Shown here: one piece after another, positions 3,935 to 63,130 of the stretch | Position numbering within the stretch: position 1 is the stretch's first letter | Layout: each line of letters begins with the position of its first letter | Virus record (IMG/VR): IMGVR_UViG_3300034107_000725 | Coordinates: 96,001 to 160,000 of that record | Length of the DNA stretch: 64,000 bases | Strand: one strand, 5' to 3' | DNA from: a virus | Position numbers and translations under genes: made by a program | The notes under the pieces: generated by a model | The model's database searches: none | The model's input: the letters and a program-made list of their open reading frames with translations, nothing else | Told to the model about the DNA's origin: nothing

Positions 3935-5272
3935 ATGAGCAATTCTGCAGTACAGTCGATGCGATCCATCGACCGATTTTTGCAGGAAGTCGCCGCAACC
4001 GAAAAGCGAGCTGCTGAAGCCAACAGTGAGCGAGGCAGTATCGGCGGAGCGACGACCCACCCTGTGAAAGATGTGGACGATCAAACGGAAGACGCCCAAG
4101 AAGGTTCTCGTTCAGCGGAAAACACCGCTGATGTGAAAGCCGATCAAGGCCCAGCCGCTGTTGATAACACACCTGAAAATGTTGCGGACAAAAAGGCAGC
4201 GGCTAAGCGAGCTTCGGCCCGCAAGCAAGCTGTCGACGGCAAGTCTGAAGACGGTGCGATTAACCCGCCCGGCACAGCTGAAGACGACCAACTTCAAATC
4301 GGCACACGTAAATCAACCACAGGTCAAGATCCTGCCGTAGAAACCTCTTCAGCTAAGGCTGAGAAGGAAGACGCAGCGGGTGGCCGCCTGGGCAATACAG
4401 CTCACCCTGCTCGTACCAACAATGGTGAGCTGGATGGTTACAAGTATGCCGAAATGCCGCTGGATCAGCTCGCTAAAGTTGCTTCCGACATGGGCAACAA
4501 CTTGTTGGCTCAACTGGCTAACTTGCAGAAACAAGCTGCAGGACTGGTCGGCGGTCAAAAAAAGTTGGACATGAACGGCAACGGTAAGCTCGAAGGTTCA
4601 GACTTTGCCTCGATGCGAAATCACTCGCAAGAAGAAGGCGAAGAGGATGAAGACGAGAAGGAAGCCGCAGATCTGGCCGGTCAAGCCGGTTGGGAACTTG
4701 CAGGTCTTCTGAGCGGTAACTTCGATAAGAAGGCTGCCGATTCCCTGGTGCGTAGCACTTTGGAAGAAATCATTAAGACTGCTTCCGATGATGCCGACAA
4801 GGTTGCTTCCTTCCTTGTTAGCTACGAGGAAGAACTCGTAAAAAAAGCTGGAGGTGAAATGCCCGCTGGCATTGATCCCGCAGCCATGGGCATGGGCGGT
4901 GCTGGTCCTGATGAAATGGCCGGTATGGACCCTGCAGCTATGGGTGGTGATCCTGAAGCTATGGGCGGTGGTGACGCTGGTGGGGATCAGGTCGCTCAGT
5001 TGGCCGCCCTGCTGGAACAGCTTGGCATTTCACCTGAAGAACTTGAAGCAGCTATGGCTGCCGAAGGCGGTCCCGGTGAAGCTGGTGGTGCCCCTATGGG
5101 CGGCGAACCTATGGGTGAGCCTGCTCCAGAACAGGCAAGTGAAGCTCCTGGCATGGAAGTTGAGGCTTCTGCAAAGCGACATGTCGCTAAGCAAGCTACT
5201 GCCAAAAAGGGTGCTGCTAACAACTTGGTGCGGGATTACATTCAGGAAATCCTGGAACGGTCTCGTCATTAA
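3935..5272 (+). CDS. Scaffold/prohead core-like acidic low-complexity protein
   Basis: 445 aa, Ala/Glu/Asp/Gly-rich, many K-x-A motifs, DMNGNGKLEGSD loop, GMDPAAMGG repeats; AAGGAG RBS; between protease and capsid genes. Confidence 0.6.
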   Translation: MSNSAVQSMRSIDRFLQEVAATEKRAAEANSERGSIGGATTHPVKDVDDQTEDAQEGSRSAENTADVKADQGPAAVDNTPENVADKKAAAKRASARKQAVDGKSEDGAINPPGTAEDDQLQIGTRKSTTGQDPAVETSSAKAEKEDAAGGRLGNTAHPARTNNGELDGYKYAEMPLDQLAKVASDMGNNLLAQLANLQKQAAGLVGGQKKLDMNGNGKLEGSDFASMRNHSQEEGEEDEDEKEAADLAGQAGWELAGLLSGNFDKKAADSLVRSTLEEIIKTASDDADKVASFLVSYEEELVKKAGGEMPAGIDPAAMGMGGAGPDEMAGMDPAAMGGDPEAMGGGDAGGDQVAQLAALLEQLGISPEELEAAMAAEGGPGEAGGAPMGGEPMGEPAPEQASEAPGMEVEASAKRHVAKQATAKKGAANNLVRDYIQEILERSRH

Positions 5273-5326
5273 TTCTAGGCTAGCATTCTGCTAGCTCCAT
5301 CTGAGGCAACTCACGGAGGTTTCCGT

Positions 5327-5767
5327 ATGAATACGAAGCTCGCAGCCCAGACGATTGAATTCATCGCCGCTTCGTCGGCGTTGAATGACCGTCTGATGGG
5401 CGAAGTGCAAGCTCATCGTGCTCGGGAAAAGCAGGCGGCTGCGAAGCGGCAGGCAGTTCTCGATCTCATGGTGAGCACAGGAAGTGTTGCTCCACATCAA
5501 AAGCAGGCAGCTGCTGGGATGTTGGGTGATCATAGTCAGAGTCTGGACCTACTGGTCAACGCAATCAACAAGATGCAGTCATACAAGGCAGCATCCGAAA
5601 AGGCGGCGTCTGACTTAGGACAGGCTGTGTCGGATCGGGAGTCTGGCGTTAAGTCAGCTTCCACGGTTCGTGACAGTTTGAACGATCCCTATGTCGGACG
5701 ACTGACTTCTGAGAAGAAGGCGTCGGACGTGGCAATTCTGGCGGTTCTGAACGCTCCGCGTTCTTAA
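5327..5767 (+). CDS. Small helical scaffold/internal head protein
   Basis: 146 aa, Ala-rich, 7 of 10 Lys in K-x-A; GGAGG RBS. Confidence 0.5.
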   Translation: MNTKLAAQTIEFIAASSALNDRLMGEVQAHRAREKQAAAKRQAVLDLMVSTGSVAPHQKQAAAGMLGDHSQSLDLLVNAINKMQSYKAASEKAASDLGQAVSDRESGVKSASTVRDSLNDPYVGRLTSEKKASDVAILAVLNAPRS

Positions 5768-5820
5768 CTTTCACACTCTAGGTCTATGTCAGGCCTTAAA
5801 TCGGTATCAGGAGGATTCCT

Positions 5821-6348
5821 ATGGCTGCTCCGCGGCAAATGACTGCCAACACTTTGAATGCGTTAAAAGGTTGGCCGCAGATGAATGCGGTCGATTACCA
5901 CGCGGCAATCGACTCGACGGTCACCACTCCTGTGCTTGCAGGCTCAGTGGTGCACGTAAACAGCTCAGGCAACTTTGTTCCGGGCGTTGGCAATCTAAAT
6001 GTCATGCCTATGTTCATCTTCAACAGCTCGGATGACCCAGATGTCTCCAATGATGGCGGCGACGCCTCAACGGATCCTGGCGTATTCATCCCTATTAGCC
6101 CAACTGGCCAGGCAATGGCTTTGGTGGCTATTGGGGCTTACGAGTTGGTAAGCACAGCTTACGTGGCTGGTTCTTACTTGCCTAACGCTCCGCTTACATC
6201 GGCTACCACCGGTGATAACAAAGGTAAGCTCGTAGCTGGCAACATGTACACCAACATGATCGTGGGATTTGTATCTCGCGGCGTTGTGGACAATGGTTAC
6301 GGTAAGAATGCTTTGGCATTCTGGCCCTTCCCTATTTTCCCTGATTGA
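5821..6348 (+). CDS. Capsid decoration/cement protein (probable)
   Basis: 175 aa beta-rich protein immediately upstream of the major capsid gene, the usual position of lambda gpD-like decoration genes; AGGAGG RBS. Confidence 0.55.
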   Translation: MAAPRQMTANTLNALKGWPQMNAVDYHAAIDSTVTTPVLAGSVVHVNSSGNFVPGVGNLNVMPMFIFNSSDDPDVSNDGGDASTDPGVFIPISPTGQAMALVAIGAYELVSTAYVAGSYLPNAPLTSATTGDNKGKLVAGNMYTNMIVGFVSRGVVDNGYGKNALAFWPFPIFPD

Positions 6349-6421
6349 TTTTCCAGACCCGTACCAGACTCGCAGTTGATAAGCCACAGGCTTAATCAAC
6401 TCAAACAAGGAGGTTTTCTTA

Positions 6422-7369
6422 ATGGCTAGCTCCACTATGATGACTCAGGAAGAAAGCAAACTCCTGAGCCAAACGATCTTCGAGAAGCTCGCTTCTCGGG
6501 ATTCGGGCCTGGAAAAGCAAGCAATTGACGCAGTCAATGATTTTACCCGCACCAAAATGCGGGAAGATGGCTTTTTCCGCCGAATTATGCCGCCAATCCC
6601 AATCTCCAACGACGATCTCGATCGTCAGGTAGATACGGACAAGCCGGTAAAGATCGTGGACAAAGAACCGAACAGCCCTGCCGCTGTTTCGATTCCTTTT
6701 GCCACACTGCCGACGAACCTGTACATCAAGGGTGACCGTTACAAGGTGACCTTCGATCGTATCGTGACACCTAAGTTCACGAAGGACGTCGATGAGCTTC
6801 GTACCTGGTACATGGATATCCGTCAGGTTCTGAGCGATAACGCCATCAAAGACATGCTGGCTGAAGAAGATGGCAAGTTCATCTCCGCAGTCAACACGGC
6901 TCTGGTTGGCCCTGGCCTGGTCGTCCCGACATCGGGCACGATTCAGTATCAGGAAATCTCAGGCGGTATCACCCGTGATACCCTGTGGGATAGCCTCAAA
7001 ATTATGCCAAACACGCCTTCGAACTTGGAAGTTCACTGCGTGCTGCTTAACAACATCACCATCAAAGAAGTTGCGAAGTTTACTCGTAACGAAATGGGTG
7101 GCGACCTCAGCGAAGAGATCATGCGTAACGGCTGGACTCTGAGCGAGTGCATGGGTGTTAAGTGGGTGATTACGATCAAGAAGGGTCTCGTGCCAACAAA
7201 CACGATGTACCATTTCGCTGATCCTAAATTCATTGGCAAATCGTATATGCTCGAGGATACTACAATGTATATCCGTCGGGAGGCATATTTTATCGAATTC
7301 TTCGCGTACGAGTCACTGGGCGGTACGCTCGGTCACACGTCTGGCCTTGCTCGCGTTGACTTTACCTGA
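6422..7369 (+). CDS. Major capsid protein (HK97 fold)
   Basis: 315 aa; FFRRIMPP, TPKFTKDVDELR..MDIRQ, KDMLAEEDGKF pattern typical of HK97/encapsulin-like capsid proteins; AAGGAGG RBS; hairpin follows. Confidence 0.85.
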   Translation: MASSTMMTQEESKLLSQTIFEKLASRDSGLEKQAIDAVNDFTRTKMREDGFFRRIMPPIPISNDDLDRQVDTDKPVKIVDKEPNSPAAVSIPFATLPTNLYIKGDRYKVTFDRIVTPKFTKDVDELRTWYMDIRQVLSDNAIKDMLAEEDGKFISAVNTALVGPGLVVPTSGTIQYQEISGGITRDTLWDSLKIMPNTPSNLEVHCVLLNNITIKEVAKFTRNEMGGDLSEEIMRNGWTLSECMGVKWVITIKKGLVPTNTMYHFADPKFIGKSYMLEDTTMYIRREAYFIEFFAYESLGGTLGHTSGLARVDFT

Positions 7370-7393
7370 TAAAAATTTCATAGGTAAGACGTT

Positions 7394-7427
7394 GCTCCTG
7401 GTTTATGCCAGGAGCCTGTCTTCCTTT
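7394..7427 (+). terminator. Stem-loop after the major capsid gene (weak terminator or mRNA-stabilising hairpin)
   Basis: GCTCCTGG-tttatg-CCAGGAGC followed by a pyrimidine-rich but interrupted tail (ctgtcttccttt). Confidence 0.5.
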
Positions 7428-7441
7428 GAGGAGCCACACTC

Positions 7442-7714
7442 ATGGCAGTAGCTTTTCCAGGTGCATATGTCGATCAGAGTATCACGGAACGTGGACCGTA
7501 TGATCAAACGTCAGAAGCTGTGGATGTCGGGAATCCCCCGGATCTCGGCTATGACCGTAGCTACGCGGTAGGCAGAGCCACTACACGTACACTGGATCTT
7601 TCTGGTCAGCAGACAGACCCTAAACCCTTCCCACCCAACAGATGGGTTGTAGGTCGTGACCCTTACGCCGTCGGTGGCGGTGTATACAGTTACCTCCTGA
7701 ACTCTGGCGGTTAA
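7442..7714 (+). CDS. Hypothetical small virion protein
   Basis: 90 aa, GAGGAG RBS, fills the gap in the operon. Confidence 0.6.
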   Translation: MAVAFPGAYVDQSITERGPYDQTSEAVDVGNPPDLGYDRSYAVGRATTRTLDLSGQQTDPKPFPPNRWVVGRDPYAVGGGVYSYLLNSGG

Positions 7715-7732
7715 CACCGTCGTTGTGGTTTT

Positions 7733-7746
7733 AAATTCCGGAATTT
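7733..7746. promoter_or_regulatory. Perfect 14-bp palindrome AAATTCCGGAATTT, intergenic
   Basis: Immediately 5' of the RBS of 7759..8154. Confidence 0.5.
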
Positions 7747-7758
7747 GGAGTATTCACT

Positions 7759-8154
7759 ATGTCAAAGAACACGCAAGCTCTGCCCAACGCGGCTGACGCT
7801 TACAATCAGTTGTTCGATGGCGTGCATGCTCAGGTCTTCCTCGGCAAGTTGGCCAGCTACGGTATTCAGCCTACGACTGAAAAAGAAGCTGCTGACTTGT
7901 TTGCGTTGGCCGGGCAACTTCGGCACGTCGATAGCCCTGTGAAGCAAGCCGCTGAACAGAGCCGTTTTGGAGGAGCCGTCTCGGCTCTTGATTCTGTGCT
8001 TGGTCACTCACCCGCAGCCCAACAGCATCAAGCTGCTGCCTACGGTGAAGCGATTAAGCAGGCAGCTGCTGACCTGATGCAAGACTCCAGCGTGTACAAC
8101 GCTGTGCTCTCGCTGAAGGCTCACGAAGCTGCTATCTTGGCTGGCGGTAACTAA
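7759..8154 (+). CDS. Small helical head-associated protein (K-x-A-rich)
   Basis: 131 aa; GKLA, EKEA, VKQA, IKQA motifs; GGAG RBS. Confidence 0.55.
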   Translation: MSKNTQALPNAADAYNQLFDGVHAQVFLGKLASYGIQPTTEKEAADLFALAGQLRHVDSPVKQAAEQSRFGGAVSALDSVLGHSPAAQQHQAAAYGEAIKQAAADLMQDSSVYNAVLSLKAHEAAILAGGN

Positions 8155-9905: not shown

Positions 9906-18997
<9,092 letters not shown>

Positions 18998-18998
<1 letters not shown>

Positions 18999-21112: not shown

Positions 21113-22756
21113 ATGTCATTCCGGTTCCACCTGCTTGGGCTGCCGCACACGGTTTCCAGCCCGGAGTATGTCGCTTGTGCTTACACTCAAAAGGTCGTTA
21201 AGTTTGCCAAGATGATGAAGGCCCGTGGCCACCATATCATCCACTACGGACACGAAGACTCTCAGGTAGACTGCCACGAGCACGTCACGGTCACGACCAA
21301 TCGGGATCTGGAAATTGCGTACGGCAACTACGACTGGCGAGCTGGCTTCTTCAAGTTTGATGTCAACGACCACGCCTACCAGACGTTCTACAGAAACGCC
21401 ATCGTTGAGGTCGGCAAGCGAAAGCAGAATCGCGACTTCATCCTGCCGTTCTGGGGTTCCGGTGTTCGACCTGTCTGTGATGCCCACCCAGACATGATCT
21501 GTGTTGAACCGGGCATCGGTTATGCCGGTGGACACTGGGCTCGTTGGAAAGTGTTCGAGAGCTATGCCATCTACCACGCTTACTGTGGAATGCACAACGT
21601 CAGCACCTGTCGTCAGGATTGGTACGACGTGGTTATCCCCAACTACTTCGATGTCGATGACTTTGAGTATTCAGACGAGAAGGACGATTACTTCTTGTAT
21701 CTGGGTCGGGTCTACGACGGCAAAGGCGTGAACATTGCGATCCAGGTCACCGAGAAGATCGGAGCCAAGTTGATCGTGGCAGGCCAGAAGGAAGAAGGCT
21801 ACGCTCTACCACCACACGTTGAGTACGTCGGCTATGCTGACCTACCAACACGTAAGCGACTCATGAGTCGGGCCAAGGGTAGCTTTGTGCCGAGCATGTA
21901 TGTCGAACCATTCGGCGGCGTTCAGGTTGAGAACCTACTCTCCGGTACGCCTACGATCACGACTGACTGGGGAGCTTTTGTGGAAAACAATCCACACGGA
22001 GTTACAGGTTATCGTTGTCGTTCGTTCGAAGACTTCGTCAACGCTGCCCTGAACGTCGACAAGATTAACCCGGCAGACTGTCGTAAGTTCGGCGAACAGT
22101 TCTCACTGGAAAACGTCGCACTCAGGTATGAGAAGTATTTCCAGGACGTCATGAACGTCTACACGGGTCAAGGCTGGTATCAGATTGGCATACCGTGCGA
22201 CTATCCTACGATGGAAACAGAGGAAGGCCCGTTCGCCAAGCGGCTGGCCGAGTATATCTCCAGCCTTTATTTCTACGGCAGGCAATTTCAAGGCACGGTC
22301 GCGGACATTGGCTGCGGTCCGGGCATCTACACACAGGCGATGCGGGAACTGGGGATTGAAGCCACCGGCTATGACACGGATGCTCGGATCAAGGGTAAAC
22401 CAAATCTAGAGCAGATCTCTCTCTTCGATTTAGATACTCCTGCTGACATAGTGCTTTGTCTGGAAGTGGCAGAACATATTCCAGAGGCTGAGGCGGACGG
22501 TGTGGTTGCCAGTATGGTTCGCAACCTGAAATCGGATTCAACAGCTGGGCTCATCATCTGGACAGCTGCTCAACCAGGACAAGGCGGACACGGGCATATC
22601 AACTGCCAACCGCCGGAATACTGGGACGCCAAGTTTGAAGCTCAGGGCATGACGAGGGAAACCTCATTTGAAGACGATCTGCGAACATTTGCTCGCGACG
22701 GATATCACATGGGTTGGTTCGTCAATAACCTGAGGGTTTATCGTCGTGCCGAATAA
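21113..22756 (+). CDS. GT4-family glycosyltransferase fused to a class I SAM-dependent methyltransferase
   Basis: [10 protein letters not shown] and [16 protein letters not shown] (GT-B/GT4); VADIGCGPG (SAM motif I), [21 protein letters not shown]. Confidence 0.9.
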
Positions 22757-43069: not shown

Positions 43070-43804
43070 ATGAACAGCTATCTTGAAGAAGAGTATAAGC
43101 CCGCATACGACGCCTGGAAGCTAGACCAGACACCACCCGGCAACGCTGCCTTCCTGGAAGCGATTCATCCAATCGTGCAGAAGGGTGTGCAGATGTACGG
43201 AGGCGACAGTCCGTTATCCGCAAGTCGCGGACGTTTGATGGCTTTGGATGCTGTACGGAAGTACGATCCCTCCCGTTCGCGTTTGCAGTCTCACCTGCTA
43301 AACCAGATGCAAGGCTTACGCCGAGTCACGCAGCAGCAAAGTCAGGTTATGCGGGTACCCGAGCGAGTGCTATTGGAAAACCAGCAACTGCATAGGCAAA
43401 CGCAGGAACTTATGGATGACCTGGGTCGTGAACCTACGGATGCCGAGTTGGCTGACCGTATGGGCCTCTCCATGCCTCGCCTGACGCGTATTCGTAAATT
43501 CCAGCCCGGTATGAGCTCTGGACAAATTGAAGAACAAAATCCAATGGCAGGTGGCGGTGCCGGGCAAATTCCTGGGCAAAGGGACGCCGCAGATCTGTGG
43601 GCTGAGGTTGTGTATCAGGATCTAAGCCCGATGGATCAAGCCATCATGGAACGTACACTAGGCATGCGTGGCCATAAAAAAATGTCCAATCAAGATTTGG
43701 CTCGGCATTTGAGTCGCAGCCCTGGAGCAATCACTCAGCGTAAGATGAAAATCCAGCAGTTACTGGATCAGGAACGTGAGCTTTCCCCTTTTATTGCGGA
43801 GTAA
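43070..43804 (+). CDS. Sigma70-family RNA polymerase sigma factor (group 3-like, regions 2-4)
   Basis: AVRKYDPSR (region 2), VMRVP...LGREPTDAELADRMGLS (region 3), LSPMDQAIM..LG....MSNQDLARHLSRSPGAITQ (region 4 HTH). Confidence 0.85.
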   Translation: MNSYLEEEYKPAYDAWKLDQTPPGNAAFLEAIHPIVQKGVQMYGGDSPLSASRGRLMALDAVRKYDPSRSRLQSHLLNQMQGLRRVTQQQSQVMRVPERVLLENQQLHRQTQELMDDLGREPTDAELADRMGLSMPRLTRIRKFQPGMSSGQIEEQNPMAGGGAGQIPGQRDAADLWAEVVYQDLSPMDQAIMERTLGMRGHKKMSNQDLARHLSRSPGAITQRKMKIQQLLDQERELSPFIAE

Positions 43805-44767: not shown

Positions 44768-46438
44768 ATGAGCCTGACCGTATCAAACTTTGAATTGTCC
44801 AACCTGACAGACCTCGACAACGCCGATGTCCAACAGGTGTTGGAACAGTTGACGACTCAGCTGCAGGAACTCAACCCTTCGTTAGATCTTAAACGAGGGG
44901 TTTTTAAAGATATCGTGGCGTACTATCACGCCGTGCTTGAGACGGCAATTCGTACAAATTTGGAACGCTACCAGTCTGCTCGCAGTCTACAGCAGATTAA
45001 CGCCAACGCCGTTGCCGCAGATTCCACAGTCGTAGATGAGGTTCTTTCTAATTGGGGCATAACCCGTAAGACAGGAACCAGAGCAATAGGTTCGGTCACT
45101 ATCGAGATCAGTCAGGCTCGCTCAGTAACCATACCGGCTAACTTCACTTTCTCTGTAAACGGATTAACCTACGTCGCGACTCAGACCTTCACCTCGAGAA
45201 CAAGTGAAGGACAGATTTCTAATCCTGTCACTGACCGCTTACTGGTACAACTGAGTAACGGAAACTGGGCCTTCACTATTGAGGTGGAAGCTGAAGACGT
45301 AGGTTCAAAATATAAGCTAAACGCCGGGGATACGTTAAACCCGGATCGAACCGTCGTATCCTTTGTCGCCAGTTACGCGACCTCTACATTTAATGACGGT
45401 TTAGACGCAGAGACCAACGAACAATTAATCGCTGAACTACAGTTGGGCCTGGCGGCCAAGGCGTTGTCTAACCGCACTAACATGCGATCTTATCTGCGAT
45501 CCATACCTGCTTTGAATCTTATAACAAATCAATCCATTGTCGGTTACGGTGACGCCGAGATGTTGCGGGATCAACATACCATTTTTCCGGTCAGCTACGG
45601 TGGCAGAGTGGATTGGTACATTCGCGGCCAAGAAACCCTACAGCGGTTGGCTGTCACGGTAACCGCAACTTGTATCAGCATCGCGGGCAGTACCAGCACA
45701 TGGCAATTTGCACTAAACAAGAACGCATCGCCCGGATTTTACGAAGTCACTAAGATTCGACGACAACTTGACGCAAATTTAAATTCCGGATTTGAAATCA
45801 TTCTAGACAGTCGATCCAACGACCTGACAGGTGACGGGTTTATTCCGGACATTACTACAATAGCAGAAGGGGCGTACACCGCGTTTCAAACTGCGATCAT
45901 ACAGTTCGTAGATACTGTGACGCTTGTATCCGGGCTGGCTGTAGGGCAGACTGCTCTATACACTTGCGAGCTGATCGGCACTCCACTGATTCAAGAAATC
46001 CAAACACTGGTATCGAGCCGCGATGTCCGCAGTTATGCCGCAGATGCTTTGGTTAAAGCTCCGGTACCTTGTTTTGTACAGGTGACTCTTACCCTAAACA
46101 AGACAACAGGAACTATGGTCGACGCGGATATGATTGACAAGATCAAGCTCGCCATCATCGGTGTAGTCAATCGCACAGACTTCGTAGGCAGGTTGGACGG
46201 TTCCTATATCATTGAAGCCGTGCACGGTCTGATTACAGATAACATAAGCATAACTCAATTGGATCTTCTGGGACGTATACGTAGACCAGACGGTACATTA
46301 CAATATTTACGAGACCCGGATTCAATTGTGATCCCGGAGCAACCGGTTAAGATGGTGACAGCAAAAACGGTTCAATTTTTTGCAGAGGTTGCAGATGTGT
46401 CCGTTAACGTAGCATCTACGATTCCTACGGCAAACTAA
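44768..46438 (+). CDS. Baseplate J-like wedge protein (T4 gp6/P2 gpJ family)
   Basis: DLKRGVFKD, NWGITRKTGTRAIGSVTI...VTIPANFTF, EVEAEDVGSKY, GLDAETNE motifs. Confidence 0.85.
   Translation: MSLTVSNFELSNLTDLDNADVQQVLEQLTTQLQELNPSLDLKRGVFKDIVAYYHAVLETAIRTNLERYQSARSLQQINANAVAADSTVVDEVLSNWGITRKTGTRAIGSVTIEISQARSVTIPANFTFSVNGLTYVATQTFTSRTSEGQISNPVTDRLLVQLSNGNWAFTIEVEAEDVGSKYKLNAGDTLNPDRTVVSFVASYATSTFNDGLDAETNEQLIAELQLGLAAKALSNRTNMRSYLRSIPALNLITNQSIVGYGDAEMLRDQHTIFPVSYGGRVDWYIRGQETLQRLAVTVTATCISIAGSTSTWQFALNKNASPGFYEVTKIRRQLDANLNSGFEIILDSRSNDLTGDGFIPDITTIAEGAYTAFQTAIIQFVDTVTLVSGLAVGQTALYTCELIGTPLIQEIQTLVSSRDVRSYAADALVKAPVPCFVQVTLTLNKTTGTMVDADMIDKIKLAIIGVVNRTDFVGRLDGSYIIEAVHGLITDNISITQLDLLGRIRRPDGTLQYLRDPDSIVIPEQPVKMVTAKTVQFFAEVADVSVNVASTIPTAN
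45782..45793. promoter_or_regulatory. AAWTCCGGAWTT palindrome, copy inside a CDS
   Basis: AATTCCGGATTT within the baseplate J gene, preceded by TTTA. Confidence 0.4.
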
Positions 46439-46453
46439 CAGGAGGTTACTTGC

Positions 46454-47368
46454 GTGGCAAAACGAGCAAGCGGACGAGCAGAAGCTATTCGATTGTTGAA
46501 GCAAGACGGTGGTGAAGATCAACGCACCCCGCAACAGATGACGTTTGCCGTGAACTACTTGACGTTCTTTGGCTACATTGCAGTACACTTGCTGCAAAAC
46601 CTGGAACTCAAAGATATCAAGGCAGCGATCAAGGCTTTTCAAAAAATCTTTGGCCTAAAAGAGGACGGCACACTCACGCCGCAAACTTTACGTGCCATGG
46701 AAGGACCTCGATGTGGTTGTCCTGACCACATTGACGCGGACAATAAAAACCACCTTCAATTCATGCGGGCTCAAGAGATCTCAATCGAGAAACGAGATCG
46801 CTGGAACAAGCAAGGATTGAAGTACTTTATCGAGAAGTATCCGACGACCAAGATTCACAAAGACGAGCAGTCGCTTATCTTTGCGTCTGCCTTCCGGGCG
46901 TGGGATGACGTGTGTGGTCTAAATATTTTAGAGTGCAAGAAGGCTGCCGATGCGGATATCATTGTATCTGTAGGCAGTGGGCCTCAGCACAACTTTGACG
47001 GTGTCGGTGGTACGCTAGCCTGGGCCTATCTACCCACGGGAACAGATCAGCAGCTTACGATGCGATTTGACCTCGAAGAAACTTGGGTAGCTAAACCAAA
47101 AGATCGTGGTGTCTTGCTGCACAACGTGGCCTGCCACGAGTTTGGACATCTTTTGGGACTAACCCATTCAAAGCGACCTAGTGCTTTGATGGCTCCATAC
47201 TACAACCCATTTGTCGCTGTCCCGCAAGAGGACGATGACATCACACGAATTGAAAAACTTTACGGCAAAAACAACCAAATTGCCGCAATTCATGAAGTCA
47301 GTAAAGTTGGCTCTAACCTGACAGTGGAACTGCAGCCGGGCCAAAAACTTACGGTTGTTTGCAAATAA
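46454..47368 (+). CDS. Matrixin (M10A, MMP-like) zinc metalloprotease with PG-binding-like prodomain and cysteine switch
   Basis: AIKAFQKIFGLKEDGTLTPQT..AM..PRCGCPD prodomain; HEFGHLLGLTH zinc motif; ALMAPYY Met-turn; FDGVGGTLA loop; GGAGG RBS with GTG start. Confidence 0.92.
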   Translation: MAKRASGRAEAIRLLKQDGGEDQRTPQQMTFAVNYLTFFGYIAVHLLQNLELKDIKAAIKAFQKIFGLKEDGTLTPQTLRAMEGPRCGCPDHIDADNKNHLQFMRAQEISIEKRDRWNKQGLKYFIEKYPTTKIHKDEQSLIFASAFRAWDDVCGLNILECKKAADADIIVSVGSGPQHNFDGVGGTLAWAYLPTGTDQQLTMRFDLEETWVAKPKDRGVLLHNVACHEFGHLLGLTHSKRPSALMAPYYNPFVAVPQEDDDITRIEKLYGKNNQIAAIHEVSKVGSNLTVELQPGQKLTVVCK

Positions 47369-47379
47369 GGAGATCGATC

Positions 47380-47781
47380 ATGCCGATGACACAGCTCACT
47401 TTGGATCTGGGTACTTTCGTGACTGCGATCAAGTACCTACTCGCTGCCTGTCTAGTAGCAGTCTGCGTGTTCACGTTTGTCATTCCCTGGATACGTGACT
47501 TGCTAACCAAGGAAGCCGAAGTTGTTGCAAACCCACGAGCGTCAGGGTTGCCTCGCTTTCGGCGTCGTGACGAAAATCACTGTAGCGACACCCCACCTCC
47601 ATCCGGATTCGCTGACCACTTGAAGGTCATTGAAGCCACGGCTCCCAACGCAGATCCAAAAATCTGGTGGGAATACGCCAAGGCTGAAATGACCGAGGCC
47701 GAAGTTGCAATCGCTGAAGCCAAGTTGGCTCGGGTTTGCAGCGATGTGACCGCAACTGTGGTGCCAGGGGGGACGATATGA
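47380..47781 (+). CDS. Single-TM membrane protein
   Basis: AAGGAG RBS before ATG 47380; TM segment AIKYLLAACLVAVCVFTFVIPWI. Confidence 0.65.
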   Translation: MPMTQLTLDLGTFVTAIKYLLAACLVAVCVFTFVIPWIRDLLTKEAEVVANPRASGLPRFRRRDENHCSDTPPPSGFADHLKVIEATAPNADPKIWWEYAKAEMTEAEVAIAEAKLARVCSDVTATVVPGGTI

Positions 47782-48143
47782 AACCCAAATACACGGGGTT
47801 GTTCTGTGGTGTTGCGGGGGTCCTGCTTCTGCTTTGGCCTTCGCAACAGAGTTCACGGCCTACCCCGCCGCCCCCTCCACCGGTAGTTTTGGATTTGCCG
47901 GGTAAGGCTTTTGCCACATATGAAAAGCTGTGGCGAAAGCATACCCAAGATGCCGCTGATAAAATTGTCAGCGGTACGTTAAAAGACGAAAAATCTGTGT
48001 GGGACTTCTTGGCCGCTGGCCAAGAACCTGCACGTAAGGTTGCGTTTGACGAGCTGGCCAAATCTGAGCAGGACTATTTCATCAAGCAAGGTGGCTGGTC
48101 CGCTGCTGCTCATGAGAAGCTATTAAGGAGCTATGCGAAATGA
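47778..48143 (+). CDS. Signal-anchored protein with poly-Pro linker
   Basis: MKPKYTGLFCGVAGVLLLLWP..PTPPPPPPVV; ATGA overlaps on both sides. Confidence 0.65.
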   Translation: MKPKYTGLFCGVAGVLLLLWPSQQSSRPTPPPPPPVVLDLPGKAFATYEKLWRKHTQDAADKIVSGTLKDEKSVWDFLAAGQEPARKVAFDELAKSEQDYFIKQGGWSAAAHEKLLRSYAK

Positions 48144-48961
48144 GCGAATCGCAAACACCTTACGACTACAACTGGGAACTAGAAGATCATGGTTACCTTC
48201 AGGCCTTGCCTGAGGCTCCCATGACTACTGATGCCTGGCAAGTCTTTTCGCGTCCGTCAGAGGTTGATGCCAGTTGGCACAACAACGAAAACCAAGGTCA
48301 AATTGGAAGCTGTCAAGGTAACGGGCTGAGCTCGGTCCTGGAACGTCTTGCCTTTGTACAGGGCAAGACTGTTCAACTATCTCGGATCTTCGCTTACTTG
48401 GCAACTCAGAAAATTGACGGGCTGTTGGGAGCGGACAACGGATCTACTATCGCAGGTGGTTGCAAACTTGCAGTAGAGTCTGGTTGTCCGCTTGAGGCTG
48501 CCACAGGGTATCCTTCACGGTATCCGAATGCGACAGAGCGAATTCAAATTCTCAGCCAGGCCAATTACAGTGCCGGGGCTCCTTACAAAGCTAAATCTGC
48601 CTGGCAAGTACCTAAAGATCATAATCAACTTCTAGATTTTATCGGAGGCGGTGGCGGCATCACTTTCGGGGTCCGCTGGTACAATGGGCTTATCCCACAG
48701 GACCGGATTGTTCGCTCTTTCCGGCCTGCCCGTTGCAGTGGCGGGCATGCCATGTGCGTGCTTGGCTACGACACAGATGGAAACTTACGAGCTTACAATT
48801 CCTGGGGTGACGGTTTGTACACAATCACCCCGGAAGCCTGGGTTCAAATGCTGTCAGATAGTTCTACCGCGGCGATCGGGTTAATGGGCAACGTAAACGC
48901 CGAGCCGATTGACTGGTATCGTAACTCTCCCTACTTCAAGCTAAGGATGAAACCAGAGTGA
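48140..48961 (+). CDS. Papain-like (C1 family) cysteine peptidase
   Basis: NQGQIGSCQG (oxyanion Gln and catalytic Cys), GGHAMCVLGYD (His), YNSWG (Asn). Confidence 0.9.
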   Translation: MSESQTPYDYNWELEDHGYLQALPEAPMTTDAWQVFSRPSEVDASWHNNENQGQIGSCQGNGLSSVLERLAFVQGKTVQLSRIFAYLATQKIDGLLGADNGSTIAGGCKLAVESGCPLEAATGYPSRYPNATERIQILSQANYSAGAPYKAKSAWQVPKDHNQLLDFIGGGGGITFGVRWYNGLIPQDRIVRSFRPARCSGGHAMCVLGYDTDGNLRAYNSWGDGLYTITPEAWVQMLSDSSTAAIGLMGNVNAEPIDWYRNSPYFKLRMKPE

Positions 48962-49674
48962 ATCGTACTACGTTTAGTGTAAAACACCTGCAGTTCGTAG
49001 CTGCGGGTGTTGCCTGTGTAGGTTTACTGGGATTGGGCTTCATGCTATCCCTTGTCTCTGCCGAGGCAGTTGCAGCTCCTCCACAGATAGTCATGGCGAC
49101 CGCGGATGATACTCTTGTCAGTAAGTTTGATGAGGAAGTCAAATCTGCGTTGGTAGACAACCATCAGAAGCAGATGGCTGCGTTGTCTGACCAAAAAACC
49201 ATGCTGCAGAAACTAGATCAATCCGTTCAGCAGTTGTTGGTAAAATCAAAAGAACAGCCAACGCCGCCTCCGGCTCCTCAAGCAGAGACCAAACCCAAAG
49301 TTCAGCCGACTCCAAAGCCTGAACCTGCAAAGGCAATAGCTCCAGCACCTGTAGCTACCACAACTTTGCCAAACCCTGTTCGTCGTTCCAGCATCATTTG
49401 GAATTTGAACAATCGTTGGGACTATTCCACGGAAGAGCTGACGGCCCACTTACTGGCCGAACACAATTTTGAGGCAGCTTCCTACGATCGAGAACAACTT
49501 CAAACGGTACACGACAACCTGCATAACGGGTACACCGCTCTAGGTGACACGGTCGTGCAAGCTCCTGTAGCTCAATCACCTGCGGTACACTATCACTATA
49601 CAGCACCTCAGCGACGTGGCTGGGGACTGCGAAGTGTTGCTTCTTGCCCTGGAGGGACTTGTCCAACGCCATGA
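48958..49674 (+). CDS. Membrane-anchored/exported protein with coiled coil, Pro-rich linker, His-rich domain and CPGGTCP tail
   Basis: Hydrophobic FVAAGVACVGLLGLGFMLSLV; QMAALSDQKTMLQKLDQSVQQLL coil; HLLAEH..HDNLHN; ends CPGGTCPTP. Confidence 0.65.
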   Translation: MNRTTFSVKHLQFVAAGVACVGLLGLGFMLSLVSAEAVAAPPQIVMATADDTLVSKFDEEVKSALVDNHQKQMAALSDQKTMLQKLDQSVQQLLVKSKEQPTPPPAPQAETKPKVQPTPKPEPAKAIAPAPVATTTLPNPVRRSSIIWNLNNRWDYSTEELTAHLLAEHNFEAASYDREQLQTVHDNLHNGYTALGDTVVQAPVAQSPAVHYHYTAPQRRGWGLRSVASCPGGTCPTP

Positions 49675-49985
49675 GTAACGAACCTAAGCCAGAAGCCATA
49701 AGCTACGACTATCCTGTTGTGATTCCAGCTTCAGTCTATGGACTGCTGGAAAGCCTGCTTAACACAGGTAAGATCTCGCAATCCGGTGTAGAGTTGGATT
49801 TTTCACCGGTGCAGGAGATTAAGATCTCCAACGGCACAGCTCGACTGAACCCGCCTGCCCGCGTATCTCTAGGGTATGGTGGTGTGGCAATTCGCACAAC
49901 TGTGTCTGCCTTAGTCGCTCAAGCAGGTGGGGTGAAGATAGAGATCGACAACTCGCCCATTAATGTTGAGGTACGTCCTGGATGA
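49671..49985 (+). CDS. Hypothetical beta-rich protein
   Basis: ATG 49671 overlaps the previous stop (ATGA); 104 aa. Confidence 0.55.
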   Translation: MSNEPKPEAISYDYPVVIPASVYGLLESLLNTGKISQSGVELDFSPVQEIKISNGTARLNPPARVSLGYGGVAIRTTVSALVAQAGGVKIEIDNSPINVEVRPG

Positions 49986-50341
49986 ACTGGGACGCCTTAA
50001 CCTTAGAATGTTGCCGAGAGCATGGATGCTCTGACCAGCATATCGATATGGCAATGGCTGGTCCGTATTCTCGAACAATCGTTCAAGATATGCGGCGAAA
50101 ACAAATTGACGTACGCACTGCTTCAGATGCCGTACGCCGAGCCTATCTGGCTAATCCACAGGCTAGCCGAGAAGAGATGCGACGGCAGTCGTATAAATTC
50201 ATTCTTGGTGGCATCCTTCTTACGATACTACTGCAAGCTCTATTATCCGCCGTAGCCAAGATGGCTATCGAGTGGTTTTTAGATCACGTCTTCAACAAGC
50301 AGGAAACCCGCAATGGCGGTATATCGCTACCCCCAGAATAA
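49982..50341 (+). CDS. Membrane protein with a C-terminal hydrophobic helix
   Basis: FILGGILLTILLQALLSAVAKMAIEWFLDHVF; ATGA overlap. Confidence 0.6.
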   Translation: MNWDALTLECCREHGCSDQHIDMAMAGPYSRTIVQDMRRKQIDVRTASDAVRRAYLANPQASREEMRRQSYKFILGGILLTILLQALLSAVAKMAIEWFLDHVFNKQETRNGGISLPPE

Positions 50342-51887
50342 TTTCGACACACCGGAACTATTGCTGGACCTATTGGGCAGTTTCTGGGCTAACACCTACC
50401 AAGGCACTGCTTTGGTAGGTGATTTAACAAGTACTGCCGGGCAAATCGCCCAGCAGACTTATCTGCACCTGCTGGAATTGATAAACAGCGTATCTCGGTT
50501 TGATGTGCCCGTCTACCATCAGGACAATTGGTACGGATTAACCATACGTGAGTCTGAGTTAAACACGGACCCGTCTCTGCTGCCGCAACATACAACACCG
50601 TCCAGCTATCAGTTCCTTAGTGACGCAACTCTGAGTTATAGCACAGATCCTCAAACAGTAAGACAAAGCCTACAACTATTTGTTGTCACCAAACCGACTG
50701 GCCTTGAGAACGTCAAACTGATTTTTAACCGGCTGACGTCACCGACAGTTGAGCTCCAGAATGGTTTGGACTACTGGATCACAGACTCTGTGATTGTCTT
50801 CCGAGACAATCCATTCAATAATCCGCTGATTGCCCGTCGAGATCTGCTCAATAACTCCGGGCAGATTGTTGACCGCGAGCTCGTCCTTTGGTTGTACCGT
50901 GGTTTATGGGACTGGAATACAGTTTATGAGCAGTTTGGTTACGCCTTACAGCTTCAGTTGAAGTCGAGTGAAGGTTATAAGTCATTTTTAAACGCCATTT
51001 TTGATGCACTTGTAGAAGGTACCAGCCTCCGCACCCAGCAGTTTGCGTTGGCTGCCGTCTACGGTGTGCCGCTAATTATCGAAGCGACTGAAACGGTCGA
51101 GACGATTGCAAAAGATGCGGATAAGCTGAACATCATTACAGATAGTCACGCTTACCAGTTCCCAGTGACTGCGATACCTCTCGTACAGGTCGGGGACGTT
51201 GTACGTGCTGGTGACTCGATAACGAACCTGTTGCAAGTATTTGAGCTCAACCGAGGAGCTGAGATCTCTCCAGCAGACATACAGGCATTAACTATCGGTA
51301 CAGGTGTGCTGGCCTGGGGCTTCTGGGGCGATTTGACGTTTGAAAATAAACAAGTACCCGTCATAGTCGAATCAGATACGGCTGGTCGCACCAAAGTCTC
51401 ATGGGCACTTGGTGGATTTCCGTTTGACGTGGAAAACTTCTGGGACGAAGTACACGCAGCAGGAGTTCAGAAAGGGCAGACGCTTGCCAACTTACTGGAC
51501 ACACGGGAAAATCCTGTAGGGCAGCCCACCGCAGGTATGTTGCCAACCACCATAAATCCATTCCAGTTCCTGACAAATAACCTTTTACGGAATAACGCCT
51601 ACCTGGTTAAAGTGCGGCCAGGCAGTGAACTTACCGATCGACTGGACTTCATGCCGGTAGAGCAGTTGCGTAAGATTCAACCGCCGCATACTCTAATGTT
51701 GCTGATTGTTGAATTGGTTCACAGGGATAGTCCTGTTATCATGGAAAATCCAGGAACCGAGACCGATCCGGGCTACGTAGAAACCTTGAGCGGATTTCCT
51801 TGCATGGTCAACTCAGATGATATGGACCCTGCAGTGTACGTGGCCGAGCGGGTTAGAACCAGCGTCATTGGCGGTCGGTGCGTCTAA
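50313..51887 (+). CDS. Baseplate wedge protein (gp7/P2 gpI-like, probable)
   Basis: LLLDLLGSFWANTY start; helical NAIFDALVEGTS..Q.ALAAVYGVP segment; position among baseplate genes. Confidence 0.5.
   Translation: MAVYRYPQNNFDTPELLLDLLGSFWANTYQGTALVGDLTSTAGQIAQQTYLHLLELINSVSRFDVPVYHQDNWYGLTIRESELNTDPSLLPQHTTPSSYQFLSDATLSYSTDPQTVRQSLQLFVVTKPTGLENVKLIFNRLTSPTVELQNGLDYWITDSVIVFRDNPFNNPLIARRDLLNNSGQIVDRELVLWLYRGLWDWNTVYEQFGYALQLQLKSSEGYKSFLNAIFDALVEGTSLRTQQFALAAVYGVPLIIEATETVETIAKDADKLNIITDSHAYQFPVTAIPLVQVGDVVRAGDSITNLLQVFELNRGAEISPADIQALTIGTGVLAWGFWGDLTFENKQVPVIVESDTAGRTKVSWALGGFPFDVENFWDEVHAAGVQKGQTLANLLDTRENPVGQPTAGMLPTTINPFQFLTNNLLRNNAYLVKVRPGSELTDRLDFMPVEQLRKIQPPHTLMLLIVELVHRDSPVIMENPGTETDPGYVETLSGFPCMVNSDDMDPAVYVAERVRTSVIGGRCV

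Positions 51888-60586: not shown

Positions 60587-63130
<2,544 letters not shown>

Follow-up and report, generated by a model that had tools for sequence, protein, structure and literature searches.

The DNA analyzed here (the window) is a 64,000-nucleotide stretch, positions 96,001 to 160,000, of the IMG/VR virus record IMGVR_UViG_3300034107_000725. The whole record (G000) comes from an uncultivated phage and is 193,990 bp long and 94% complete. At 46454..47368 on the plus strand of the window, which is the strand of every window feature described below, lies a gene for a true and complete matrixin zymogen (MEROPS M10A type) of 304 amino acids, with the stop codon included in the span. The protein keeps the prodomain, cysteine switch, and catalytic motifs of the animal matrix metalloproteinase (MMP) proenzymes, or proMMPs, and the residues that bind their structural zinc are gone.

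Pfam matched Peptidase_M10 (PF00413) over the entire profile (1-159 of 159) to residues 116-271 (115.4 bits; cut-off, 24 bits; E 2.9e-33) and matched PG_binding_1 in the prodomain (E 1.2e-7). Among solved structures searched with phmmer, proMMP-9 (5ue3) aligned across residues 31-271, taking in the prodomain, switch, and catalytic domain (E 6.8e-28). We modeled the protein with AlphaFold2 from 84 relatives (mean predicted local distance difference test score, or pLDDT, 87.5; predicted template modeling score, or pTM, 0.78). Foldseek matched this model to proMMP-9, proMMP-10, and proMMP-3 at target TM-scores of 0.81-0.87 and to full-length proMMP-1, which includes its hemopexin domain, at 0.45. 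Identity to vertebrate proMMPs is 32-34% over about 245 columns, and Foldseek gave 38-40% for the catalytic domain against MMP-13 catalytic domains. A preliminary description of this DNA, made before any database search, had proposed a phage-encoded protein with the full proMMP layout, an intact cysteine switch, a prodomain related to PG_binding_1, and neither a signal peptide nor a hemopexin domain. All of this was borne out. Every motif that it quoted is in place, and the switch, PRCGCPD, aligns with PRCGVPD of proMMP-9. No signal peptide was found (the N terminus is hydrophilic, with a maximum KD19 of 1.43), and a Pfam scan of the protein returned no hemopexin domain.

Translation would begin at a GTG codon, with a ribosome-binding site, AGGAGG (46439..46444), read from the sequence 8 nt ahead of it. 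This start is supported because conservation among homologues begins at about residue 6 (GRxEAxRLL). The first part of the protein (46454..46705) consists of an N-terminal helix (residues 8-18) and a helical, PG_binding_1-related prodomain (residues 26-83). The modeled helices span residues 8-18, 26-38, 44-49, 52-65, and 76-83, and the prodomain motifs YLTFFGY and AIKAFQKIFGL..DG occupy residues 35-41 and 58-72. The switch follows (residues 85-91; 46706..46726), with C87 and a second cysteine, C89. For conservation, we used an alignment of 121 close relatives and a distant set of 151 representatives. The linker between the switch and the catalytic domain (46727..46801) has a predicted helix at residues 98-112, and EKRDRW lies at residues 112-117; no dibasic site is conserved in this linker across the 121 close relatives. 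The catalytic domain, delimited by Pfam M10 and Foldseek, runs from W117 to G271 (46802..47266). Its zinc motif, HEFGHLLGLTH (residues 228-238; 47135..47167), with H228, E229, H232, and H238, is invariant in all 121 close relatives and in 150 of the 151 representatives. The Met-turn, ALMAPYY (residues 244-250; 47183..47203), has M246 in 121/121 close relatives. The protein closes with a linker and a short beta-hairpin (47267..47365), ending ...VELQPGQKLTVVCK, where the model is less confident (pLDDT 63-72). Nearly all relatives have a tail of this kind, with 20-50 residues and a short hairpin of one of two sequence types; in some, an FN3-like or PKD domain separates this tail from the catalytic domain. 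A search of the genome for other proteins sharing the tail-end motif gave nothing convincing, and no longer fused forms of the matrixin were found at 1e-20, which is weak evidence.

The structural-zinc site was examined in the S-loop region (46973..47071), using the proMMP-9 alignment and the relatives. MMP-9 H175 and D177 fall in a three-residue gap beside SGP in the phage protein, H190 is replaced by W190 (LAWA; 47021-47023), and H203 is replaced by R204 (MRFD; 47063-47065). All four ligands are gone, and therefore the loss of the site rests on all four. The S-loop is 7 residues long in the phage forms, compared with 10 (xHGDxxPFDG) in the canonical matrixins sampled. Tryptophan occupies position 190 in 120 of the 121 close relatives and arginine or lysine position 204 in 115, and the only histidine nearby, H179, is conserved in just 69. 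The calcium ligands are kept: D182, G183, G185/G186 (FDGVGG), D206, and E209 are all invariant or nearly so, as are F181, the three catalytic histidines, E229, and M246. Judged from these alignments, the structural-zinc site is absent, and it is absent clade-wide. The preliminary description had noted that the three structural-zinc histidines appear replaced while the calcium-loop residues remain. Both statements held, and the replacement proved to involve a deletion as well as W190 and R204 and to be shared by the whole clade.

A phylogeny of the M10A family, which the preliminary description had named as a check, placed the zinc-less forms together. In a FastTree analysis of 239 catalytic domains, 205 of the 211 forms without His190 made up one clade (support, 0.85), which suggests a single loss of the site. 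Of its members, 150 are metagenome proteins, 52 come from IMG/VR, and 3 lie on contigs of metagenome-assembled genomes; the switch, scored as RC no more than 60 residues ahead of the catalytic domain, is present in 173 of the 205. This points to a large, almost entirely phage clade whose ancestor probably lost the structural zinc once. A 2025 study of MMP evolution, in which phages are unmentioned, says that every MMP has a structural zinc (PMC12587646). Since a metal site common to all characterized MMPs has been lost, the protein might be a noncatalytic wall-binding or structural module that merely keeps the matrixin fold. We consider this exceedingly unlikely, as hundreds of diverged sequences show no change in the catalytic residues, the Met-turn, or the switch cysteine, and selection for activity and latency would give such a pattern. 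A clade of hundreds that lacks the structural zinc and keeps all other features offers a natural experiment on the role of the second zinc. C154 (46913-46915) and C227 (47132-47134) tend to occur together in relatives (odds ratio, 4.6; p 0.001), and each excludes cysteine at position 161 (p about 1e-7). This pattern may reflect a disulfide, or some other site, within the catalytic domain, and a C154-C227 disulfide could stabilize the domain in lieu of the lost zinc.

The family is large. A word-indexed search returned 389 clusters at 90% identity, and the best 120 of these are all proteins of about 300 amino acids from metagenomic contigs of up to 236 kb. An exhaustive search of 50% identity representatives gave 169 matches at E <= 1e-30 and 2109 at E <= 1e-10. 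Among the best 150 representatives, position 190 is tryptophan in 124 and histidine in only 6, and the His190 representatives include mis-merged animal MMPs with hemopexin. IMG/VR yielded 87 related loci, and the two nearest ESM Atlas clusters are 82% and 99% Viruses. The best matches in 185,579 prokaryote genomes are merely 27-32% identical, tblastn against 50,697 GenBank phage records found no match at 1e-5, and a PHROGs scan of the protein matched no family. We found no paper on phage matrixins, and a few uncharacterized phage entries exist in BFVD. These results place complete cysteine-switch zymogens in phages, with no relative in PHROGs or in those GenBank records. The phage copies are also a possible carrier for the proposed transfers of MMP genes between kingdoms. 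Other matrixins occur in phages as well: short forms of about 200-215 amino acids with a propeptide of roughly 30 residues (PRCGVKD), catalytic-only forms, and a few canonical forms with zinc ligands. One canonical phage matrixin (L102:5383-6588, +) keeps the zinc ligands, has PRCGVRD, and is fused to three ChW repeats (Pfam E 1.3e-25).

The switch is also highly conserved. R86, C87, and G88 are present in 121/121 close relatives, and RC is present in 147 of the 151 representatives. C89, which completes a CGC triad, is found in 110 of the 121 close relatives and in 66 of the 151 representatives. With a reduction potential of about -167 mV (PMC4316792), CGC would be reduced in the cytoplasm and oxidized outside it. 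We infer that the redox state of the triad may gate the enzyme. In the family alignment, the prodomain also has the position of an endolysin-type peptidoglycan-binding motif (DGTLTPQT in our protein; 46664..46687). The motif DG-Pho-Pho-G-x-x-T (Pho, hydrophobic residue) is present in 60/121 members, the commonest form being DG[IV][IVL]GPKT and most often DGIVGPKT. A motif D-G-Pho2-G-K/N-G/N-T has been described for the wall-binding domains of the endolysins KZ144, EL188, and PVP-SE1gp146 (PMC3352856). The PG_binding_1 fold is also the fold of the MMP prodomain, and no other PG_binding_1 match was found in the genome.

The phage protein shares with vertebrate proMMPs (the proMMP-9 mini-zymogen, 5UE3/8K5V; proMMP-3, 1SLM; proMMP-10, 9CSX; and proMMP-1, 1SU3) the three-helix prodomain, the PRCGxPD switch, the catalytic fold, HExxHxxGxxH, the Met-turn, and the calcium-loop ligands. 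Unlike them, it has no signal peptide, hemopexin domain, fibronectin domains, or structural-zinc ligands, and it has the second cysteine of CGC, an extra N-terminal helix, and a C-terminal hairpin tail. Karilysin of Tannerella forsythia is a secreted enzyme that keeps the structural zinc and has a short Asp-based propeptide instead of a cysteine switch. This bacterial M10A enzyme (2XS3/4R3V) is alike in being a prokaryote-associated matrixin catalytic domain (E 1.8e-19), but the phage protein scores higher against animal MMPs. The MMPs of insect DNA viruses are animal-virus enzymes that act on the host basement membrane. Those of iridovirus, nudivirus, granulovirus, ascovirus, and entomopoxvirus, which are likewise virus encoded, were the best structural matches in BFVD (E 1.4e-17 to 1e-8); their identity to the phage protein is only 18-26%, and the few phage entries there matched more weakly.

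Two phage systems also invite comparison. The modular endolysins of large Gram-negative phages (KZ144, EL188, PVP-SE1gp146, and 201phi2-1gp229) resemble the matrixin in having an N-terminal PG_binding_1-type module with D-G-Pho2-G-x-x-T, a C-terminal catalytic domain, and no signal peptide (PMC3352856). However, their catalytic domains are muramidases or transglycosylases, whereas the matrixin is a predicted latent protease in which the wall-binding-type module would double as an inhibitory prodomain. The nearest published case to the phage matrixins is the Listeria phage-derived metzincin Mtz with its TIMP-like partner, Tim. Mtz is phage associated, and expressing it changes the cell wall and makes phage lysis easier, but it has a Sec signal peptide, acts by cleaving a lipoprotein partner, and has neither a PG_binding_1 prodomain nor a cysteine switch (PMC8235301). 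No TIMP-like neighbor was found beside the phage matrixin.

The matrixin gene is accessory and belongs to a variable island within a late baseplate operon. Its upstream neighbor encodes a Baseplate_J-like wedge protein of 556 amino acids (44768..46438; Pfam Baseplate_J E 7.5e-12). Downstream are genes for a 133-amino-acid protein with an N-terminal transmembrane segment at residues 20-38 (47380..47781; KD19 maximum, 2.63), a 121-amino-acid protein with a signal-like hydrophobic N terminus, by hydropathy, and a Pro-rich linker (47778..48143), and a papain-like cysteine peptidase of 273 amino acids without a signal peptide (48140..48961). The first two have no family match; the peptidase matched phrog_16701 "peptidase" (E 1.3e-6) and nothing in Pfam, and it is confined to the closest relatives (G006-G009). 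The rest of the island (48958..50341) encodes a 238-amino-acid membrane-anchored protein, a 113-amino-acid protein, and a 119-amino-acid protein with a transmembrane segment (KD19 of 2.20 and 2.36). Searches of the neighbors with Pfam and PHROGs named only Baseplate_J, this peptidase, and a sigma-like protein. The last is a sigma-70-like gene inside the baseplate operon (43070-43804; Sigma70_r3 E 7.1e-7, phrog_351 E 2.1e-9) that is conserved in relatives.

In the closest relatives, the matrixin always directly follows the Baseplate_J-like gene, and the upstream block is conserved. A search with Baseplate_J as the query gave 19 related loci, with the matrixin directly after it in 11 and missing from the site in 8. 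In those 8 loci, which lack the island, Baseplate_J is followed at once by a homologue of 50313-51887. Therefore, the matrixin and the genes downstream of it are an inserted island. When whole records were searched, the matrixin was missing from G002 (224 kb, 100% complete) and G004 (202 kb, 90%), and in G003 (205 kb, terminal repeats) it lies about 45 kb away on the other strand, with small membrane or signal-bearing proteins on both sides. An earlier view of the gene as standard phage equipment was thus not borne out.

Other islands have different contents. In L137 (IMG/VR 3300008110_000054), the interval between the Baseplate_J gene and the homologue of 50313-51887 holds a gene for a 106-amino-acid membrane protein and then one for an S8 subtilase without a signal peptide (6054-7163, +; Pfam S8 E 8.7e-59; phrog_3677 "protease"), so that a protease of a different class fills the matrixin slot. 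We considered whether subtilase and matrixin have complementary distributions and rejected this, since S8 was found only in G051, and the matrixin-free G002 and G004 have neither. The island of L129 encodes membrane proteins as well as a lipoprotein whose lipobox reads LSGC. It also has a gene for a 313-amino-acid protein (6969-7907, +) that matched nothing in Pfam or PHROGs and belongs to a very large conserved family (1549 hits), with members more than 60% identical from Tara and other aquatic samples. In L136, the second gene after Baseplate_J (4651-6552, +) contains an intein (Intein_splicing E 5.8e-10) that includes a LAGLIDADG-type endonuclease.

We searched the genome for ten families of peptidoglycan hydrolases (Phage_lysozyme, SLT, Amidase_2, GH19, GH108, M15_4, M15_3, M23, NlpC/P60, and Amidase_3). 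None was found from the eight with working controls, and the nulls for GH19 and GH108 are uninformative because the control genomes gave no signal. Across 15 related genomes (G000-G014, 116-408 kb), Phage_lysozyme, SLT, Amidase_2, and Hydrolase_2 had no match, and M15_3 had one sub-threshold match only. Within the matrixin itself, M10 was the only catalytic domain detected with Pfam and PHROGs, and no known peptidoglycan-hydrolase family was matched.

We tentatively favor the reading that the matrixin is an envelope-directed protease that is latent in the cytoplasm and let out at lysis. It is favored because a signal peptide is missing, because calcium is unlikely to occupy its site in the cytoplasm, and because the thiol switch would be closed there; the membrane-protein company in several phage lineages, the wall-binding-type prodomain, the replacement by another protease in a relative, and the negative searches for standard peptidoglycan hydrolases also speak for it. 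The enzyme would be synthesized in the cytoplasm, where the bond between Cys87 and zinc would hold it inactive, with reducing conditions and scarce free calcium contributing. When infection ends, the small membrane proteins encoded beside it might give it access to the envelope, as holins do for endolysins, and docking on the cell wall may be the task of the prodomain. Once the protein has left the cytoplasm, its switch could be opened by a C87-C89 disulfide, by displacement of the prodomain through wall binding, or by a cut from the neighboring protease. The active enzyme might then cleave envelope proteins, such as an S-layer or the tethers between outer membrane and wall, and possibly peptide stems, and so aid cell burst as a phage "hatching enzyme." If the matrixin does act on the envelope, then an abundant group of uncultivated aquatic phages would use protease-based lysis or entry, and the enzyme would be a small protease carrying its own safety catch, possibly one worked by redox state.

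The preliminary description had offered roles at lysis, in the virion, or on a biofilm matrix; the genomic context favors an envelope-directed role tied to membrane proteins. Small transmembrane proteins were encoded by 51 of 190 genes one or two positions from the matrixin and by 40 of 348 genes three to six positions away (odds ratio, 2.8; Fisher p 1e-5), in a count made over 60 largely nonredundant phage loci with a crude open reading frame (ORF) caller and with statistics that ignore relatedness. Several observations weigh against the favored reading. None of the membrane-protein neighbors matched a holin or spanin family in Pfam or PHROGs. DGTLTPQT in our protein is degenerate, meeting the wall-binding motif only in part, and no matrixin is known to cut peptidoglycan. 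The gene is dispensable in relatives (G002 and G004), and because these matrixin-free relatives also have no recognizable lysins, the matrixin is not the one essential lysin of the group. Finally, the location in a baseplate operon and the Ig-like spacer domains of some relatives suit a virion protein equally. A bolder version of this reading, which we regard as decidedly unlikely, is that proteases rather than standard peptidoglycan hydrolases breach the envelope in this phage group. The matrixin would then be a self-arming lysin with a wall-binding prodomain, a CGC switch opened by a disulfide without proteolytic activation, and a Trp/Arg pair in place of the structural zinc.

The main rival is a virion-borne entry enzyme, somewhat unlikely in our estimation. 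The zymogen would ride on the baseplate through its C-terminal hairpin, be activated outside the cell or on contact, and digest a protein layer on the host surface, clearing the way for the tail to the membrane. In most of the 11 loci, the gene begins 0-18 nt after Baseplate_J (61 nt in L089) in a late operon that is entirely on the plus strand, and a scan of 43-52 kb for promoters and terminators found nothing above shuffled expectation. The short C-terminal hairpin behind a flexible linker is conserved, and a thiol switch opened by oxidation would suit a particle that leaves the cytoplasm. FN3-like and PKD domains, such as those in the linker of some relatives, are typical of exposed phage virion proteins. 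However, relatives build a baseplate without a matrixin, the G003 copy lies far from the baseplate genes among membrane proteins, and the short forms in other phages are near genes for glycosyltransferases, single-stranded DNA-binding protein, and dUTPase rather than structural genes. No fusion with a tail protein was found, although this is weak evidence.

It is also conceivable, if rather improbable, that the enzyme from a lysing cell remodels surfaces or degrades matrix, helping progeny to spread by destroying receptors on debris and neighboring cells or a protein matrix such as a biofilm or marine gel. An accessory, mobile gene would suit this, as would the genes beside short-form matrixins (GT4, GT47-like, DUF1501, and a secreted trypsin-like protein), the three ChW cell-wall-binding repeats of the canonical phage matrixin, and a secreted protein of about 600 amino acids encoded after the gene in other phage groups. 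Nevertheless, without a signal peptide, lysis would be needed for release anyway, and by sequence this role is indistinguishable from that of the envelope protease released at lysis.

Finally, the phage has collagen-like proteins for which the matrixin might be a maturation protease, acting on a 3030-amino-acid ORF product and a collagen fiber. Collagen-repeat ORFs of 3030 amino acids (9906-18998) and 842 amino acids (60602-63130) lie in the window, and the genome has 39 PF01391 matches. Among the first 15 related genomes, strong PF01391 repeats were present in 9 of 11 matrixin carriers and absent from two near-complete noncarriers. However, about 30 other matrixin-bearing phage records, four of them 95-100% complete, had no match, 80 matrixin loci were all without a collagen-like ORF within 10 kb, and G010 has a matrixin without collagen. 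The co-occurrence vanished once the other matrixin-bearing phages were added, and we judged it a lineage effect. A cytoplasmic substrate would also be a misfit for a switch that is closed in the cytoplasm, and we consider this role very unlikely.

Some further genes were seen around phage matrixins and elsewhere in the window. In other large-phage groups, a signal-peptide protein of about 590-640 amino acids without a known domain is encoded directly after the matrixin (L053:11159-13072, L048:10918-12684, and relatives). GT4-type glycosyltransferases lie within a few genes of short-form matrixins at 23 loci (L066-L106). The window itself encodes a glycosyltransferase at 21113-22756 (phrog_3408 E 3.6e-207).

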